A stretch of DNA of 64,000 bases from Candidatus Saccharicenans sp. (GTDB lineage: Bacteria > Acidobacteriota > Aminicenantia > Aminicenantales > Saccharicenantaceae). The position numbers were made by a program, and so were the translations under genes. Numbering within the stretch: position 1 is the stretch's first letter; every line of letters starts with the position of its first letter. Positions 4,990 through 63,710 of this stretch are shown here, one piece after another. Below the pieces are notes generated by a model. The model was not told the origin of the DNA. It saw nothing but the letters and a program-made list of their open reading frames with translations, and did not search any database. The DNA lies in NCBI GenBank assembly GCA_024653215.1, contig JANLFU010000001.1:269492-333491 (forward strand), in the 5' to 3' direction.

Positions 4990-5305
4990 ACATTCTCAGA
5001 TTTTTGAGAATTTTTCTGTTCACCGGCTAAAGCCGGGGCGGAGCCCGGGTCCTGGCTGTAGTTTATTCTGTTAAATCCTTTTCTTCGGGGTGGGGGTGGG
5101 TAAAGGCAAGACCCGAAGACTGGTTGACTCCCGGTTCTGCTGTCCGGTCCGGATCCCGGCAAATTTGTCCATGGTCAAACAGAGTAATTACTGTCGGAAA
5201 AATTATGAAAGATAAAATTATCGGGGTGGAGATGATCGCGGGAAAATTTAAAAAAATTACTGGCTGGCTGCTGCCAGCTGTTATTATCCTGTTCCAGGGT
5301 TTATA

Positions 5306-6190
5306 ATGGATGAAATGAAAAAAATAATAGCGGTTTCCGTTCTGCTGGCCTGGCTGGCCGGGGCGCTGTCCGCCTCAGACCTGAAGTTTGTGGTGGTCTC
5401 CGACACCAATCCCGAATTCCTCAACCAGAAGGATTTCTCCCACTTTGAAAAGTTTATCGACCGGATTAATGCCCTGAAACCAGACCTGGTGATCAATCTC
5501 GGGGACCTGATTTACGGCTACGGCCTGCGGAGCACCAGGCCCCAGTGGGAGAGATACCTTGAGGTTATCGGCCGGATCGAGCCCCCCTATTACCAGATCC
5601 CCGGCAATCATGATGTCTTTAATAACCGGGCCAGGCAGATCTACCTGGAATTATTCAGAAAAACCTATATGTCTTTTGACGCGGGCAAATGCCACTTTGT
5701 TCTCCTGGACAACCTGGAAGATGGGGTCTGGGGAAAAATCGGTCCGGAGCAACTGGCCTGGCTGGAAGAGGACCTCAAGCGGCCACGCTGGGAACAGGCA
5801 TTTGTGTTCATCCATGTCCCGGTCTGGGATATGAAGGCCCGAAACGTCAGGCTGGAATGGAGAGAATTCTGGTTTGAAAAAATCCATCCGTTGCTGCTGG
5901 CCGGCCGGGTGAAGGCGGTCTTTGCCGGCCACAGTCACCGTTTCGGACCGACCAGAATCTACGACGGTCTGATTTACTACATTGCCGGGGGAGGCAGTCC
6001 CAGACTTCATAAAGAATATGTCAGGGCCGGGGGTCGCAATTTTTTTCTGCTGGTGGAAGTCACCGAGAATGGATTTAAGGTGAATGTGGTCATGGAGGAC
6101 CGGATAATCTCTGAACAGGAAGCTGATATCCTGAGGGATGTTCTTGGCCCCCATTTTTACCGGCCCGGAGAATCTCAAAACGCCAGATAG
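5306..6190 (+). CDS. Secreted calcineurin-like metallophosphoesterase
   Basis: Signal peptide; the VVVSDTN, LGDLIYGYG and GNHD motifs are typical of the metallophosphatase fold. Confidence 0.75.
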   Translation: MDEMKKIIAVSVLLAWLAGALSASDLKFVVVSDTNPEFLNQKDFSHFEKFIDRINALKPDLVINLGDLIYGYGLRSTRPQWERYLEVIGRIEPPYYQIPGNHDVFNNRARQIYLELFRKTYMSFDAGKCHFVLLDNLEDGVWGKIGPEQLAWLEEDLKRPRWEQAFVFIHVPVWDMKARNVRLEWREFWFEKIHPLLLAGRVKAVFAGHSHRFGPTRIYDGLIYYIAGGGSPRLHKEYVRAGGRNFFLLVEVTENGFKVNVVMEDRIISEQEADILRDVLGPHFYRPGESQNAR

Positions 6191-6259
6191 ACTTTTGACT
6201 TGCGTGGTGATTAAGCCTGATGTTGGCCCAGGATTAAATTTTATTTTAAAGGAGGGCTC

Positions 6260-6514
6260 ATGTCCGAAAAGTCTAGGCTGGTAACTTTTCTTCTGTGCTG
6301 GTTGTTTGGCCTGTTCGGCGGTCACCGCTTTTATGTGGGCAAGACCGGCACCGGCCTGATCTGGCTGTTCACTCTCGGTTGCCTGGGAATCGGGGTGCTG
6401 GTTGACCTGATCATGATTCTGCTGGGAAAGTTCTATGACGCCCAGAACAAGCCGGTCCTGGTCTGGTTCAGAAACTGCGATGCCGAGGGCAGGGTCCTGA
6501 GCTACTCAGTTTAA
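6260..6514 (+). CDS. TM2 domain-containing small membrane protein
   Basis: LFGLFGGHRFYVGKTGTGLIWL matches the TM2 signature; two hydrophobic helices. Confidence 0.7.
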   Translation: MSEKSRLVTFLLCWLFGLFGGHRFYVGKTGTGLIWLFTLGCLGIGVLVDLIMILLGKFYDAQNKPVLVWFRNCDAEGRVLSYSV

Positions 6515-6574
6515 AAAAGAGATGGGAGGGCTGGCGCCCCTCAGCGAAGAAGTTGAGGAAAGAAATCTTTTAAG

Positions 6575-7309
6575 TCAGAAATCGAGCAGGTCCAGGGTCC
6601 GGGGCCTTTCCTCCAGGTGGAAGACGATAATGGCCTGGAAAACCCGGCCCAGCTTCTTCCAGTCGTCCGCTTCGAGTTCCAGGTCTGGAGGAACTTCCGG
6701 CGGATTCTTTTTTATCCAGTCTATGGCCTGAACCAGCCGGGGGCTCAGTTCAAACTTTTTGTCCCGGGCACACCGGTCACACAGGACGCCGTCTTTCTGC
6801 GGCTCCAGCCAGGCGGTGTTAATTATCCTGTGATGGCACTTCTGGCAGGTCCGGAAATCAGGCAGGATACCGTTAATTTTCAGAAACCAGTACTCGAAAT
6901 AGCGAACCAGGTATTCCACCTTTTGCCCGGCCCGGGCGGCCCTGGTCAGGCTCACCAGCAGCCGGTAGAGCTTCTCCTCCCCGGCCCGGTACGGGGAGAA
7001 CTTTTCGGTCAGCTCGGCCAGGTAAGAAAAAAAGCAGGCCATCCGGCGATCACTGAACAGTTCGAAGGCCGACTCCAGCAGGTCGCAGTTGCTGACGGTG
7101 ACCAGGTCCTGCCTCTCCTTTTCATAATAAAAGATCCTGACTATGGAGAACGGCTCCAGACTGCTGCCGAAGCGGTTGTTGAATTTCCTGGCTCCCTTGG
7201 CGATGCCCCGCACCAGCCCCTTCTCCCGGCTGAAAAAGACCACCAGTTTATCCTGTTCGGCAAAACTCTGGGTGCGTAAGATCACGGCCTCGGATTGGTC
7301 TATTGGCAT
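6575..7309 (-). CDS. recO: DNA repair protein RecO
   Basis: N-terminal OB-fold region (AVILRTQSFAEQDKLVVFFSREKGLVRGIAKGARK) and C-terminal Cys4 zinc finger (CQKCHH...CDRCAR). Confidence 0.85.
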   Translation of the reverse strand: MPIDQSEAVILRTQSFAEQDKLVVFFSREKGLVRGIAKGARKFNNRFGSSLEPFSIVRIFYYEKERQDLVTVSNCDLLESAFELFSDRRMACFFSYLAELTEKFSPYRAGEEKLYRLLVSLTRAARAGQKVEYLVRYFEYWFLKINGILPDFRTCQKCHHRIINTAWLEPQKDGVLCDRCARDKKFELSPRLVQAIDWIKKNPPEVPPDLELEADDWKKLGRVFQAIIVFHLEERPRTLDLLDF

Positions 7310-11659: not shown

Positions 11660-11716
11660 AAGATTTATGGTCAGGCAGAAGGTGGTGAAATCAGGTATGT
11701 GTTTAGTCGACTGGTC

Positions 11717-11895
11717 TATTTGACAAAAAGGTACATGAACCAGCCGAAGGCCAGGGAAGCCAGGGTCATTATCAGGAACAGGGTCAGGCCGTAGCGGAGC
11801 CGGCTCTTCAGGTCGGGACGGCGGATCAGGGCCAGCACCAGAGACACTAAGAAGGCGTAGATAATCATGGTGAAGAGGTGACTTTCCAGGATCAT
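11717..11895 (-). CDS. Unannotated 58-aa two-helix hydrophobic small protein
   Basis: Manual translation gives MILESHLFTMIIYAFLVSLVLALIRRPDLKSRLRYGLTLFLIMTLASLAFGWFMYLFVK. Its ATG overlaps the stop of the upstream membrane-protein gene (ATGA at 11892-11895). At under 60 aa it is not in the ORF track. Confidence 0.3.
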
Positions 11896-13258: not shown

Positions 13259-13275
13259 TAGCTCTTGCAAAGAAT

Positions 13276-13350
13276 GCCCCTGTAGCTCAGTATGGATAGA
13301 GCAAGGGATTCCTAATCCCTGTGCCGGGAGTTCGAGTCTCCCCAGGGGCA
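13276..13350 (+). tRNA. tRNA-Arg (anticodon CCT)
   Basis: Full cloverleaf: acceptor GCCCCTG/CAGGGGC, D-stem GCTC/GAGC, anticodon stem AGGGA/TCCCT with loop TTCCTAA, T-stem GGGAG/CTCCC with loop TTCGAGT; no encoded CCA. Confidence 0.85.
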
Positions 13351-13512
13351 TTTGGCTTCATCCGAAAGATGAGCCCAAAAGGGAAGGGTCAGGCAGGTTT
13401 GGTCCTCAGGGGGAGGTTCAGGGCGGGGCAGTCCAATCGCCGGTCAATAAGGGAAAAGTGCTGGCGGTTTTCGGCCCGGCCGAATGAGGGGAGCAGAAAT
13501 CATCTTTTAATT

Positions 13513-13526
13513 CACCTTGAAAGGTG
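13513..13526 (+). promoter_or_regulatory. Perfect palindrome CACCTT-GA-AAGGTG upstream of the orphan 435-aa gene; operator-like
   Basis: Exact 6-bp inverted repeat separated by 2 bp, about 65 nt upstream of ATG 13590; a GGTGA(A/T)A motif recurs at about 13556. Confidence 0.3.
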
Positions 13527-13589
13527 ATAAATTTATGGGCGGAATATTTTATTAAAGGGGTGAAATCGTAGATTTGAAAGGACCGAGCC

Positions 13590-14897
13590 ATGAACAGGGT
13601 CATCCTGCTGGATTTTGAGGATAGGGACAAGGAGTACCTGGAGCAGGAGCAGGTCGATACCTTTCTAATTCACACCTCCGATTTCAGGAATCTGCCGACC
13701 ATCCTGCCCGAGGCCAGGGCCATTTTTTATCAGCTCAACTGGCCGGTGGAGGAGGAGGCTGTTCCGGGCGGGCTGGCGGAGAAGGTCCAGGAAATGGTGG
13801 TGGATGGAGCCAGGGTGGTCTGCTTTGTCGGCAAGGGGCATCTTTACCAGCTGACCGGCGTTATCGGTACCTTCCCGGATATTCATTTTCAGGAATCGAC
13901 CCCGAACGAGGTGCTGCTGGTAACACCGGAAATGCCCTTCAACCTGGTTTTTGAGAAATTTTCCAGCAGCCTGGCCCATATTTACAAGCTGTTGCCCAAC
14001 TCTTTTGGCGCCGACATCTGGGAGGTCCCGGCCAGCCTGAACGAAAGCTGGAAAATTGTGGCCAAGAGCCATGATGGCTATCCGGTTTCCCTGATGATCA
14101 GGAAGGGAAAGGGCTTCATCTGGCTGCTGCCCTGGTTCGGTCAGCACAATATCAAGGTGGTTGATTTCATCCTGAAAGATGTTTTCCCGCTCATGGAAAT
14201 GAAAGGCAAGGAGGTGGAGCAGATGGACTGGATTGACAAGGAAGAATATCTTTTCCCGGAAATCAAGGAATTGTTCCTGAAGAAGGAAGAAGAGAAGAAG
14301 AAATTCGAGGAAAGGTTAAAGGAACTCGACGAACAGATCAGGACCCTGCGGGAAACCCAGCAGGAGGCCTTCAACCGCCTGCTCAAGGCCGAGGGCCCGG
14401 AACTGAAGGCGGCCGTCCTCCAGGCCTTCAAGTATCTGGGCTGGGCCAAGGTGGTGGATGTGGACCAGTACTGGAAGAACGTCATCAGGGACAAGGAGGA
14501 AGACCTGTGGCTCATCGAGAACAATGACCAGCCGGTGGAAGTTTGCCTGCGCAAGGAATTCCTGATACTGGTAGTCATCAGGAGCAGCCGCAACTGGGCT
14601 ACCGATGACGACTGCATCCTGCTGCAGAGGTTCAAGGGCCGCCGCATGCAGGAATTTGACAATACCAGGATGAAGGCCATCCTGGTCGGCAATTACTTCA
14701 ACCTGGTTGAGGCCAAGCTGCGGAACAATCCTTATTCCCAGTTCCAGGTGGAGGAAGCAGAAAAGGACGGGAACGGCCTGCTGACCACCTATGAACTCTT
14801 CCAGGTCATCAAGGCCGAGAAGGAAGGTCTCATCAGCAAAGAGGAAATCAGGAAGCAGATCAAGGAAAAGGCCGGACTGCTGAAGTTCAACTATTAA
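13590..14897 (+). CDS. Uncharacterised 435-aa protein: N-terminal globular domain, charged coiled-coil segment (KEEEKKKFEERLKELDEQIRTLRETQQ), C-terminal globular domain
   Basis: Clean ATG with AAAGGA about 8 nt upstream; no recognisable family motif; monocistronic, between tRNA-Arg and an AT-rich spacer. Confidence 0.6.
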   Translation: MNRVILLDFEDRDKEYLEQEQVDTFLIHTSDFRNLPTILPEARAIFYQLNWPVEEEAVPGGLAEKVQEMVVDGARVVCFVGKGHLYQLTGVIGTFPDIHFQESTPNEVLLVTPEMPFNLVFEKFSSSLAHIYKLLPNSFGADIWEVPASLNESWKIVAKSHDGYPVSLMIRKGKGFIWLLPWFGQHNIKVVDFILKDVFPLMEMKGKEVEQMDWIDKEEYLFPEIKELFLKKEEEKKKFEERLKELDEQIRTLRETQQEAFNRLLKAEGPELKAAVLQAFKYLGWAKVVDVDQYWKNVIRDKEEDLWLIENNDQPVEVCLRKEFLILVVIRSSRNWATDDDCILLQRFKGRRMQEFDNTRMKAILVGNYFNLVEAKLRNNPYSQFQVEEAEKDGNGLLTTYELFQVIKAEKEGLISKEEIRKQIKEKAGLLKFNY

Positions 14898-14954
14898 AAC
14901 CAGCTCGGCCGTACTTTTTTCTGGTTCTTTATTGTTAATTCTCTTACTATCTTG

Positions 14955-14984
14955 TTTATTTTATTCCACTTTATTTTATTCCAT
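14955..14984. repeat. Perfect tandem direct repeat, 2 x TTTATTTTATTCCA (15-bp period)
   Basis: 14955-14968 and 14970-14983 are identical 14-mers separated by a single C; AT-rich, between the orphan gene and the TPR gene. Confidence 0.7.
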
Positions 14985-15045
14985 CCTCCCACTTGGATTT
15001 TATCCAGGAATATGCTAAAAAGAAGTCTTTAAGGAGAGGCCCGAT

Positions 15046-63619: not shown

Positions 63620-63693
63620 GCGCCTGTAGCTCAGTTGGATAGAGCGACGGACTCCGGATCCGTAGGTCGCGCGTTCGAATCGCGCCAGGCGTA
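63620..63693 (+). tRNA. tRNA-Arg (anticodon CCG)
   Basis: Cloverleaf: acceptor GCGCCTG/CAGGCGT (G1-U72 wobble), D-arm GCTCAGTTGGATAGAGC, anticodon stem ACGGA/TCCGT with loop CTCCGGA, T-arm GCGCG-TTCGAAT-CGCGC. Coordinates may be off by 1 nt. Confidence 0.75.
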
Positions 63694-63710
63694 CTCTTGC
63701 TTTAAGAGTC

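Follow-up and report, generated by a model that had tools for sequence, protein, structure and literature searches.

A conserved Aminicenantes gene predicted to join a ThuA-like domain to a FokI-like nuclease fold

Several described systems share a fold with the gene treated here. On the nuclease side these are the FokI cleavage domain, the R.BspD6I small subunit and N.BspD6I, the two-domain PD-(D/E)xK repair endonuclease NucS/EndoMS, and effectors with a C-terminal PD-(D/E)xK domain such as Shedu SduA and those of the Can2/Card1 type. On the other side are the class I glutamine amidotransferases (GATases) and the non-catalytic domains of the ThuA-like, STM3548 (GATase1_like) and IFT52-N 'GIFT' types. 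Both folds are predicted for the protein encoded by what is called here gene X, the open reading frame (ORF) at 13590-14897 on the forward strand of a 64-kb stretch of DNA from Candidatus Saccharicenans sp. (contig JANLFU010000001.1, positions 269,492 to 333,491; the whole stretch is referred to as the window). No description of this family, or of a ThuA/amidotransferase-like fold fused to a nuclease, was found in the literature.

The gene X protein departs from each of these systems. In the predicted structure it is closest to FokI, but membership of the FokI_C family is not demonstrated: the protein has no match to Pfam PF09254 and the profile match is weak. Moreover, ExK is replaced by (L/V/I)xR in the clade of X, which also carries an 11-residue insert with a glutamate, E317. 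The DNA-recognition domain and the neighbouring methyltransferase of type IIS restriction-modification are both lacking, a GATase1-like domain taking the N-terminal position instead. NucS/EndoMS has a different N-domain fold, keeps its catalytic residues and has no sequence relationship to X, whereas Shedu SduA and the Can2/Card1-type effectors differ from it in that X is syntenic and vertically inherited, has lost ExK and is not matched by PADLOC models. The N-domain has its fold in common with class I GATases, whose catalytic triad is not in X, and it lacks a sequence-level family match to the ThuA-like, STM3548 or IFT52-N types.

It seems somewhat more probable than otherwise that gene X belongs to a large unannotated superfamily, is inherited vertically in one copy throughout the Aminicenantes, consists of a non-catalytic ThuA-like N-domain, a long charged helix and a FokI-like C-domain, and serves in the maintenance or repair of cellular DNA. 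All genomes compared are metagenome-assembled genomes (MAGs), and the evidence is computational.

Gene order and descent in the Aminicenantes

In a large protein collection, 404 homologues of the gene X protein were found at E <= 1e-3. The 120 best of these are almost all of full length (435-445 amino acids, aa), range from 98% down to 46% identity and are without exception annotated as 'hypothetical'; their named sources are Candidatus Saccharicenans, Aminicenantes or Acidobacteriota MAGs. An earlier note on the window had described the gene as an orphan of no recognisable family. This is correct for curated libraries, since the protein is unmatched in Pfam, NCBIfam, PADLOC, PHROGs and PDB sequences, but not for proteins at large, as the 404 homologues and the 905 cluster representatives discussed below illustrate. 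Sub-threshold library matches (FSIP1; EF-hand/calmodulin, E 0.17-0.6; TRF1, E 0.14) were treated as chance.

A scan of GTDB with one genome per species gave 109 genomes with a relative, and 80 loci, chosen for containing X, were kept for analysis. No two of them share an assembly, and all records with an informative label are from Aminicenantes/Acidobacteriota; the best match, at 99%, is in Ca. Saccharicenans subterraneus BY38. The 24 GTDB loci with X at 64% identity or more share one gene order (arrangement A): GatB, DUF6677, Fpg, X, TPR_21, ferredoxin (Fer4), M50 peptidase and DZR, followed by HypF wherever the available sequence extends so far. The window has the same order, with Fpg and a tRNA gene upstream of X and TPR_21, ferredoxin and M50 downstream. 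The tRNA-Arg(CCT) gene lies between Fpg and X in 22/22 scanned loci with X at 64% identity or more; among those scanned with X under 52% it does so in 0/38.

A second set of loci was selected by the flank, using the invariant first 48 nucleotides (nt) of the tRNA. It comprises 34 metagenome loci, 31 of which have enough downstream DNA. X stands right after the tRNA in 22 of these 31, all of them from the close clade and with X 59-93% identical; for the close-clade loci of this set the count is 22/22. Taken over the whole close clade, all 46 loci show Fpg, the tRNA (where scanned), X and TPR_21 (where the sequence reaches), with no polymorphism for presence or absence of X.

TPR_21 is found within 4 kb downstream of X in 50 of the 80 loci. 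In more distant clades, with X 41-51% identical (arrangement B), the tRNA is gone and the upstream genes differ, and X still heads the TPR_21-Fer4-M50-DZR-HypF block; it is directly adjacent to the block in some loci and separated from it by unrelated cargo in others. One locus that was counted as having no nearby TPR_21 turned out, in its 10-kb flank, to carry X, a 5.5-kb sugar-utilisation cassette and then TPR-Fer4-M50-HypF. Because tRNA adjacency vanishes beyond the close clade while the link to the TPR_21-Fer4-M50 block persists, X belongs with this block and not with the tRNA, and tRNA-Arg(CCT) is an ancestral neighbour of gene X only within the close, Saccharicenans-level clade.

Identity to the window protein in X runs closely parallel to that in the neighbouring genes, with r = 0.985 for TPR_21 (n = 50), 0.969 for M50, 0.964 for DZR and 0.916 for HypF. 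The ratio of nonsynonymous to synonymous substitution rates (dN/dS), taken against four orthologous loci at 91-96% identity, is 0.044-0.048 for gene X. For the same four loci the ratio is 0.12-0.17 for Fpg, 0.09-0.12 for TPR_21, 0.08-0.15 for M50, 0.07-0.16 for DZR and 0.03-0.05 for ferredoxin, so purifying selection on X is stronger than on four of the five neighbours tested (Fpg, TPR_21, M50 and DZR). Such co-divergence in combination with a low dN/dS is typical of genes that pass on vertically and have an important role in the cell, and not of recent cargo. We therefore consider gene X very probably a vertically inherited, core-like gene instead of island cargo.

Domain folds and the rewritten active site

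An AlphaFold2 model of the gene X protein, built from 42 sequences, has a mean predicted local distance difference test score (pLDDT) of 84.8. It consists of an alpha/beta N-domain (residues 1-205), a low-confidence linker (206-222, with pLDDT <50 at residues 206-213), long charged helices (223-282, with helices at 223-266 and 269-282) and an alpha/beta C-domain (283-435), which bears out the three-part layout proposed in the earlier note. The helix region holds 14 K+R and 14 D+E among its 60 residues, and its long helices may serve in oligomerisation. Foldseek agrees with this domain layout and returned no full-length match. That the folds are as stated, i.e., a ThuA-like N-domain, a helix and a FokI-like C-domain, can be accepted with high confidence; the folds are known, the architecture of the family is new.

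The N-domain matches the GATase1-like fold. A Cys-His-Glu triad was not found in it; residues 1-205 contain no invariant His or Glu, and C78, conserved in the clade, is V, I or A in the relatives. The C-domain, which is the most conserved part of the protein, has the alpha-beta-beta-beta-alpha-beta core of the PD-(D/E)xK phosphodiesterase superfamily. The nuclease-type C-terminal domain, in which the earlier note had seen D...E...K-type patches, was a good call. When the C-domain profile was aligned by hhalign with FokI residues 384-579 (the FokI sequence was verified against PDB), the family ExK fell on D467-x-K469 of FokI, with a pairwise E of 0.0034 and a probability of 9.6%. For FokI_C (PF09254), there was no Pfam match for X at E <= 10, nor for 10 relatives at E <= 0.01.

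Conservation of the presumed active site was followed column by column in 118 clade members, 124 representatives of the wider superfamily and 115 long-form proteins of about 600 aa. In all three groups no change is seen at E304, P181, W214, L272, R378 and, with one exception, N368; R351 and R352 do not vary within the clade or within the long-form set. D305, the 'PD' aspartate with which the second core strand begins, is kept in 354 of 357 sequences (116/118 clade members, 123/124 representatives and 115/115 long-form proteins). The third core strand is where the clade stands apart: a (D/E)xK motif is not found there in the X clade, which has (L/V/I)-x-R. Position 329, the acid of ExK, is E or D in 233/239 relatives and L, V or I in 118/118 clade members (an acid in 0/118), and position 331, the ExK lysine, is K in 228/239 relatives, whereas clade members have R in 112/118 and K in 2/118. 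Furthermore, E317 in the clade-specific 11-residue insert is invariant, and an N-H motif of the relatives reads N-Y in the clade.

Since the nearest relatives outside the clade (P0127 and P0389) still read LVEVKSS, the loss of ExK can be placed at the base of the Aminicenantes clade. The site appears to be under selection for an altered function, because the C-domain has stayed the most conserved part of X. Judged by its conservation pattern, this altered function could be either catalysis with a migrated acid or non-catalytic DNA binding, and the chances that the product of gene X is a catalytically active nuclease seem evenly divided.

Possible functions and the wider superfamily

If gene X acts in cellular DNA maintenance or repair and not in immunity, its C-domain would either use a rewired active site or bind DNA without cutting it. 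Dimerisation is required of the FokI cleavage domain, and the gene X protein would likewise work on DNA in oligomeric form, with the helix and the N-domain holding the subunits together. The link to repair is drawn because of glycosylase neighbours together with the nuclease fold. Fpg lies immediately upstream of X in arrangement A. In seven loci of one sub-lineage (L075, L079, L081, L085, L086, L087 and L090), the stop codon of X is followed at -19 to +10 nt by the start of an AlkD-like gene (PF08713, E = 2e-54), in an apparent operon. Next to these tight associations, which concern only Fpg and the AlkD-like gene, UDG is found four genes upstream, and DnaB immediately downstream, of the nearest out-clade relative, in L092. 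Taken by itself, a role of X in DNA repair or maintenance is a tentative proposal, to be held with rather less than even confidence.

A number of observations weigh against the assignment that we favour. The glycosylase link is circumstantial, as Fpg and X are split by a tRNA gene and promoter elements and UDG is four genes away, and in most B-type loci the genes upstream of X are unrelated ones. Function is read from fold and neighbourhood, with no annotated homologue to lean on, and at the sequence level the connection to FokI is weak, as the hhalign probability and the unmatched PF09254 indicate. With the ExK acid lost and the lysine changed to arginine, X may not cleave DNA at all. The figure of 109 genomes refers to genomes with a relative alone. 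Finally, in six loci of a distant lineage (arrangement C: L097, L101, L102, L113, L127 and L128; TPR_21 35-38% identical), tRNA-Arg(CCT) is followed by TPR_21-Fer4-M50 with no X. Upstream, arrangement C has unrelated genes, for an M48 peptidase, a CHASE2 cyclase and an MscS-cNMP channel. Either X was lost or relocated in arrangement C, or it was inserted long ago beside the tRNA in an ancestor that A and B had in common; in both scenarios X has been at the locus since before the deepest split sampled.

Beyond the Aminicenantes, a profile search of 1.84 billion cluster representatives gave 905 representatives of 50%-identity clusters at E <= 1e-3, of which 460 at E <= 1e-10. Most are 550-620 aa long and about 20-23% identical to X. 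A sample of 16 relatives from these scans had no Pfam or NCBIfam match and no credible PADLOC match. More precisely, in PADLOC-DB 2.0 X matched 0 families at E <= 10, so that the check for a defence family suggested in the earlier note came out negative, and the 16 relatives at E <= 0.01 gave one marginal match, of the Synechocystis protein P0311 to Cas8a (27 residues, E = 0.0045). The Klebsiella gene adjacent to one of the relatives served as positive control and scored PifA with E = 2.1e-261.

The long form, with about 600 aa and the canonical D...ExK, occurs in Methanococcoides, several cyanobacteria, Photobacterium, Scalindua, Thiodictyon, Epulopiscium and Armatimonadetes, as well as on seven plasmids and one phage-labelled contig. 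Three plasmid relatives were studied (L093, L094 and L095; about 565-585 aa, canonical D...ExK). On the conjugative Klebsiella michiganensis plasmid NZ_CP024642.1 (L094) the gene comes right after pifC-PifA, with an Abi-family gene close by; a K. pneumoniae plasmid has it between two IS1 copies; and on another plasmid it is beside a RelE/ParE pair. On a 5.2-Mb chromosome, a long-form relative precedes a DUF1016 fragment and an AAA_15/AAA_23 ATPase. This guilt by association suggests a defence or addiction role for the long-form relatives. An unannotated long-form relative was also seen at 5061-6680 of MT837188.1, a 7.5-kb 'Bacteriophage sp.' contig from human faeces; it is 37% identical to P0311 over 93% of its length.

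Gene X itself is probably a domesticated derivative with a rewritten catalytic motif. A fuller scenario would see in the superfamily an undescribed group of single-gene FokI-like nuclease effectors on plasmids and in defence islands of both Bacteria and Archaea, with an Aminicenantes branch that was fixed at one locus, lost ExK, took E317 on its new insert as replacement acid, obtained a dedicated operator and was recruited to base-excision repair with the glycosylases Fpg and AlkD-like; as a whole this is a doubtful proposition.

A related possibility is that X is a chromosomally fixed immune nuclease, that is, a single-gene anti-phage or anti-plasmid effector kept by vertical inheritance, in which the N-domain senses, the helix transmits and the FokI-like domains dimerise and cut. 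A layout of sensor, linker and nuclease is typical of single-protein defence effectors, and the canonical D...ExK relatives scattered over Archaea, Cyanobacteria, Gammaproteobacteria, Planctomycetes and Firmicutes, with their plasmid contexts next to PifA, Abi, IS1 and RelE/ParE genes and their chromosomal ATPase neighbour, would fit. The earlier note's comparison with single-gene defence proteins thus finds some ground in these distant relatives, which look like mobile accessory or defence genes, but not in X. Fixed synteny, one copy per genome in the 80 kept loci, co-divergence with housekeeping neighbours and a dN/dS of about 0.045 argue against an immune effector, as do the replacement of the catalytic ExK in 118/118 clade members, the empty PADLOC result for X with no credible match for its relatives, and the operon with a DNA-repair glycosylase in one sub-lineage. 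Furthermore, no defence genes stand beside X in any Aminicenantes locus examined. We consider an immune function unlikely.

Somewhat less likely again is that X is a catalytically dead scaffold or regulator, of which the nuclease domain binds DNA or protein and the position reflects a tie to the membrane-associated block of TPR_21, ferredoxin, M50 site-2-type protease and DZR. Inactive PD-(D/E)xK domains that serve in binding are known, e.g., in ERCC1 and EME1, and the lost ExK acid, the change from Lys to Arg and the location of X on the same strand at the head of the TPR_21-Fer4-M50 block across the whole clade are in agreement with such a role. However, a conserved promoter-like element precedes the block itself, insertions of 0.5-5.5 kb of unrelated cargo recur between X and TPR_21, and the sub-lineage designated D pairs X with the AlkD-like gene, TPR_21 not being found in the DNA available there. 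The (near-)invariance of E304-D305 and of the clade-specific E317 also goes beyond what a pure scaffold seems to need.

It is very improbable that X arrived recently as accessory or defence cargo and integrated 3' of tRNA-Arg(CCT), as the earlier note supposed. The short distance of 238 nt to the tRNA gene (the note had given about 240, and both ARAGORN and Rfam support the tRNA), the want of a curated family, the variable spacer between tRNA and promoter, and the distant lineage in which tRNA-Arg(CCT) and TPR_21 without X resemble an empty site might all be taken as signs of an insertion. Against this stand the usual tests for an island. No integrase or recombinase is present between Fpg and the TPR_21 gene, where X is the only ORF with homologues, and none was called in the orthologous loci. 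A search of the window for the 21-nt 3' end of the tRNA, tolerating 3 mismatches, found it at one place alone, which gives no sign of an att duplicate; on both points the earlier note was correct. Base composition is not deviant, the GC content being 0.534 for the ORF of gene X and 0.556 for the window. A comparison for presence or absence, which the note had recommended, showed X after the tRNA in 46/46 close-clade loci and six distant-lineage loci without it; the conserved tRNA-proximal orthologues that it had named as evidence against docking are thus largely what is found, but the housekeeping annotation it had looked for with them does not exist. X stays linked to the TPR_21 block in lineages without the tRNA, co-divergence with the neighbours is high (r = 0.985), purifying selection is strong, and any insertion would be older than the deepest split of the clade.

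An enzymatic role as a metabolic GATase or ThuA-like enzyme with an accessory C-terminal domain can practically be dismissed and was rejected, since the Cys-His-Glu triad is absent, with C78 replaced by V, I or A in relatives, there is no GATase match in Pfam or NCBIfam, and the nuclease-fold domain is the best-conserved part of the protein.

Probable regulatory elements, surroundings and meaning of gene X

Upstream of gene X lies an inverted repeat with 7+7 arms, TCACCTT-GA-AAGGTGA at 13512-13527 (CACCTTGAAAGGTG). The earlier note had called it a perfect palindrome, which it is not, because the central GA is not self-complementary; as an inverted repeat it is real and conserved. A repeat with arms of at least 7 arises in 3.6% of shuffles of the 238-nt spacer and by itself is only mildly unusual, so it is its conservation across loci that led us to take it as real. 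In the close clade the element reads TCATCTT-N5-TCAYCTT-N2-AAGGTGA followed by TAAATT; it lies within 110 nt of the start codon in 23 of 24 loci, and at -245 in the remaining one (L019). In L021 it shows a compensatory C>T / G>A double change. The looser pattern TCAYC-N4-7-GRTGA lies no more than 200 nt before X in 65/78 loci, at a density of 4.23 hits/kb vs 0.042/kb elsewhere in the same loci, i.e., it is enriched about 100-fold. Even in distant clades, which have no tRNA and unrelated upstream genes, TCACC-N4-6-GGTGA precedes X in 43/54 loci.

The repeat stands directly before TTGAC(G/C) in 37 loci, and the TAAATT of the window occupies the place where distant clades carry this TTGAC -35-like hexamer. 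A T/A-rich block is conserved at the putative -10 position in an alignment of 25 upstream regions; a promoter consensus scan called no promoter at 13547-13556. Gene X would thus be transcribed from its own promoter, with a regulator binding to the TCACC-N4-6-GGTGA repeat that abuts the -35 region, and the conserved repeat is likely to be a protein-binding operator. An RNA element was considered and rejected in favour of a DNA operator: the repeat has no Rfam family match, its RNA fold is not significant (z = -0.56), and it is often located upstream of the -35-like hexamer. A second regulon member bearing the operator was rejected as well, as there is no second copy in the window, and hits elsewhere in the loci occur at background rate or inside the Fpg coding sequence. 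In the seven loci with the AlkD-like gene the TCACC-N6-GGTGA operator is missing; what they share instead is a GACTAAAT motif immediately ahead of the ribosome-binding site (RBS).

Coordinates are collected in Table 1. The ORF and its own RBS are as the earlier note had described them, the RBS being part of a GAAAGGA that is conserved across orthologous loci. Of the spacer at 13352-13489, about 110-130 nt are shared only by the window and L001, and the spacer is largely gone from the orthologous loci at 77% and 65% identity. Within it are a hairpin-like TCATCCGAAAGATGA at 13358 and, at 13470, the short palindrome TTCGGCCCGGCCGAA; neither has an evident function.

Table 1 Features of gene X and its flanks in the window
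Feature	Position	Strand	Remarks
tRNA-Arg(CCT)	13275-13351	+	ARAGORN; Rfam tRNA 66.4 bits, E = 9.7e-14; 238 nt upstream of gene X
Variable spacer, tRNA to conserved regulatory element	13352-13489	+	Alignment of orthologous loci
Conserved operator-like element	13500-13533	+	Half-sites TCATCTT (13500-13506), TCACCTT (13512-13518), inverted AAGGTGA (13521-13527); TAAATT (13528-13533)
Putative -10 region TTTTAT / TATTAA	13547-13556	+	16-17 nt after TAAATT
RBS of gene X, AAAGGA	13577-13582	+	7 nt before ATG
Gene X	13590-14897	+	435 aa, ATG start
N-terminal domain (aa 1-205)	13590-14204	+	Class-I glutamine-amidotransferase-like / ThuA-like fold without catalytic triad
Linker (aa 206-222) and long charged helices (aa 223-282)	14205-14435	+	AlphaFold2 confidence, helix positions
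C-terminal FokI-like PD-(D/E)xK nuclease-fold domain (aa 283-435) and stop codon	14436-14897	+	
Codons E304-D305	14499-14504	+	C-domain
Codon E317	14538-14540	+	C-domain, clade-specific
Codons V329-I330-R331	14574-14582	+	C-domain, replaces ExK
Direct repeat 2 x 14 nt, TTTATTTTATTCCA	14955-14968 and 14970-14983	+	Period 15, one base between copies; AT-rich 3' spacer
Promoter-like element and RBS of downstream TPR_21 gene	14990-15036	+	Alignment of orthologous spacers; putative function

Both flanks of gene X are AT-rich, with a GC content of 0.50 in the 5' spacer and 0.35 in the 3' spacer. The earlier note saw in this an AT-richer bracket around the gene, but such values are at an ordinary intergenic level, and gene X is without compositional anomaly. 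The tandem repeat TTTATTTTATTCCA is likewise real, its copies standing one base apart; it is the sole adjacent repeat of this kind in the 64-kb window and did not arise in any of 5000 shuffles of the 3' spacer. A function for it was rejected because it is missing even from the spacer of the 91%-identical orthologue L001, and it is not in the orthologous spacers of L003 (77%) and L005 (65%) either. The repeat is probably a local duplication without function.

Within the otherwise variable spacer between X and TPR_21, the only conserved parts are the blocks at 14990-15036. They comprise TTGGAT (14993-14998), 17 nt, TAAAAA (15016-15021) after TGC, and the RBS AAGGAG (15031-15036), which suggests that the TPR_21 gene may have its own promoter. 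Transcription of gene X as a monocistronic unit, as put forward in the earlier note, is plausible in view of this promoter-like element. No canonical terminator was detected 3' of its ORF. The gap between X and TPR_21 (14898-15045 in the window) is also a recurrent insertion site, where L007, L008, L009 and L130 carry cargo of 0.5-5.5 kb (a flavodoxin gene; flavodoxin with GH2; a DUF5916/CBM9 gene; a 5.5-kb SSF transporter-GH94-GH130 cassette) and the flanking genes keep their order. It is this gap, rather than gene X, that acts like a cargo hot spot.

Two further genes in the window may be mentioned. A second tRNA gene, tRNA-Arg(CCG), is found at 63620-63694, near the window end. Beside the DUF6677 gene, with a 4-nt overlap at the end of the latter, lies an ORF of 59 aa on the reverse strand (about 11716-11895, an approximate position derived from 3684-3863 in L001). 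It is called in every close-clade locus examined, has no Pfam match and may encode a conserved small protein.

The case of gene X removes a false lead, as a tRNA neighbour and a missing Pfam match do not make a defence island. It also exposes a large protein family outside the curated libraries, in which an amidotransferase-like domain is joined through a long helix to a FokI-like nuclease domain. If the mobile members of about 600 aa prove to be defence nucleases, they would constitute a new single-gene system that is missed by current PADLOC and NCBIfam models, and the Aminicenantes branch would in that event show clearly how an immune-type nuclease can turn into a constrained chromosomal gene with a rewritten active site. 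For the Aminicenantes, a widespread uncultured lineage, gene X is a tightly conserved lineage-wide gene with a conserved, likely operator, and a candidate DNA-maintenance factor.

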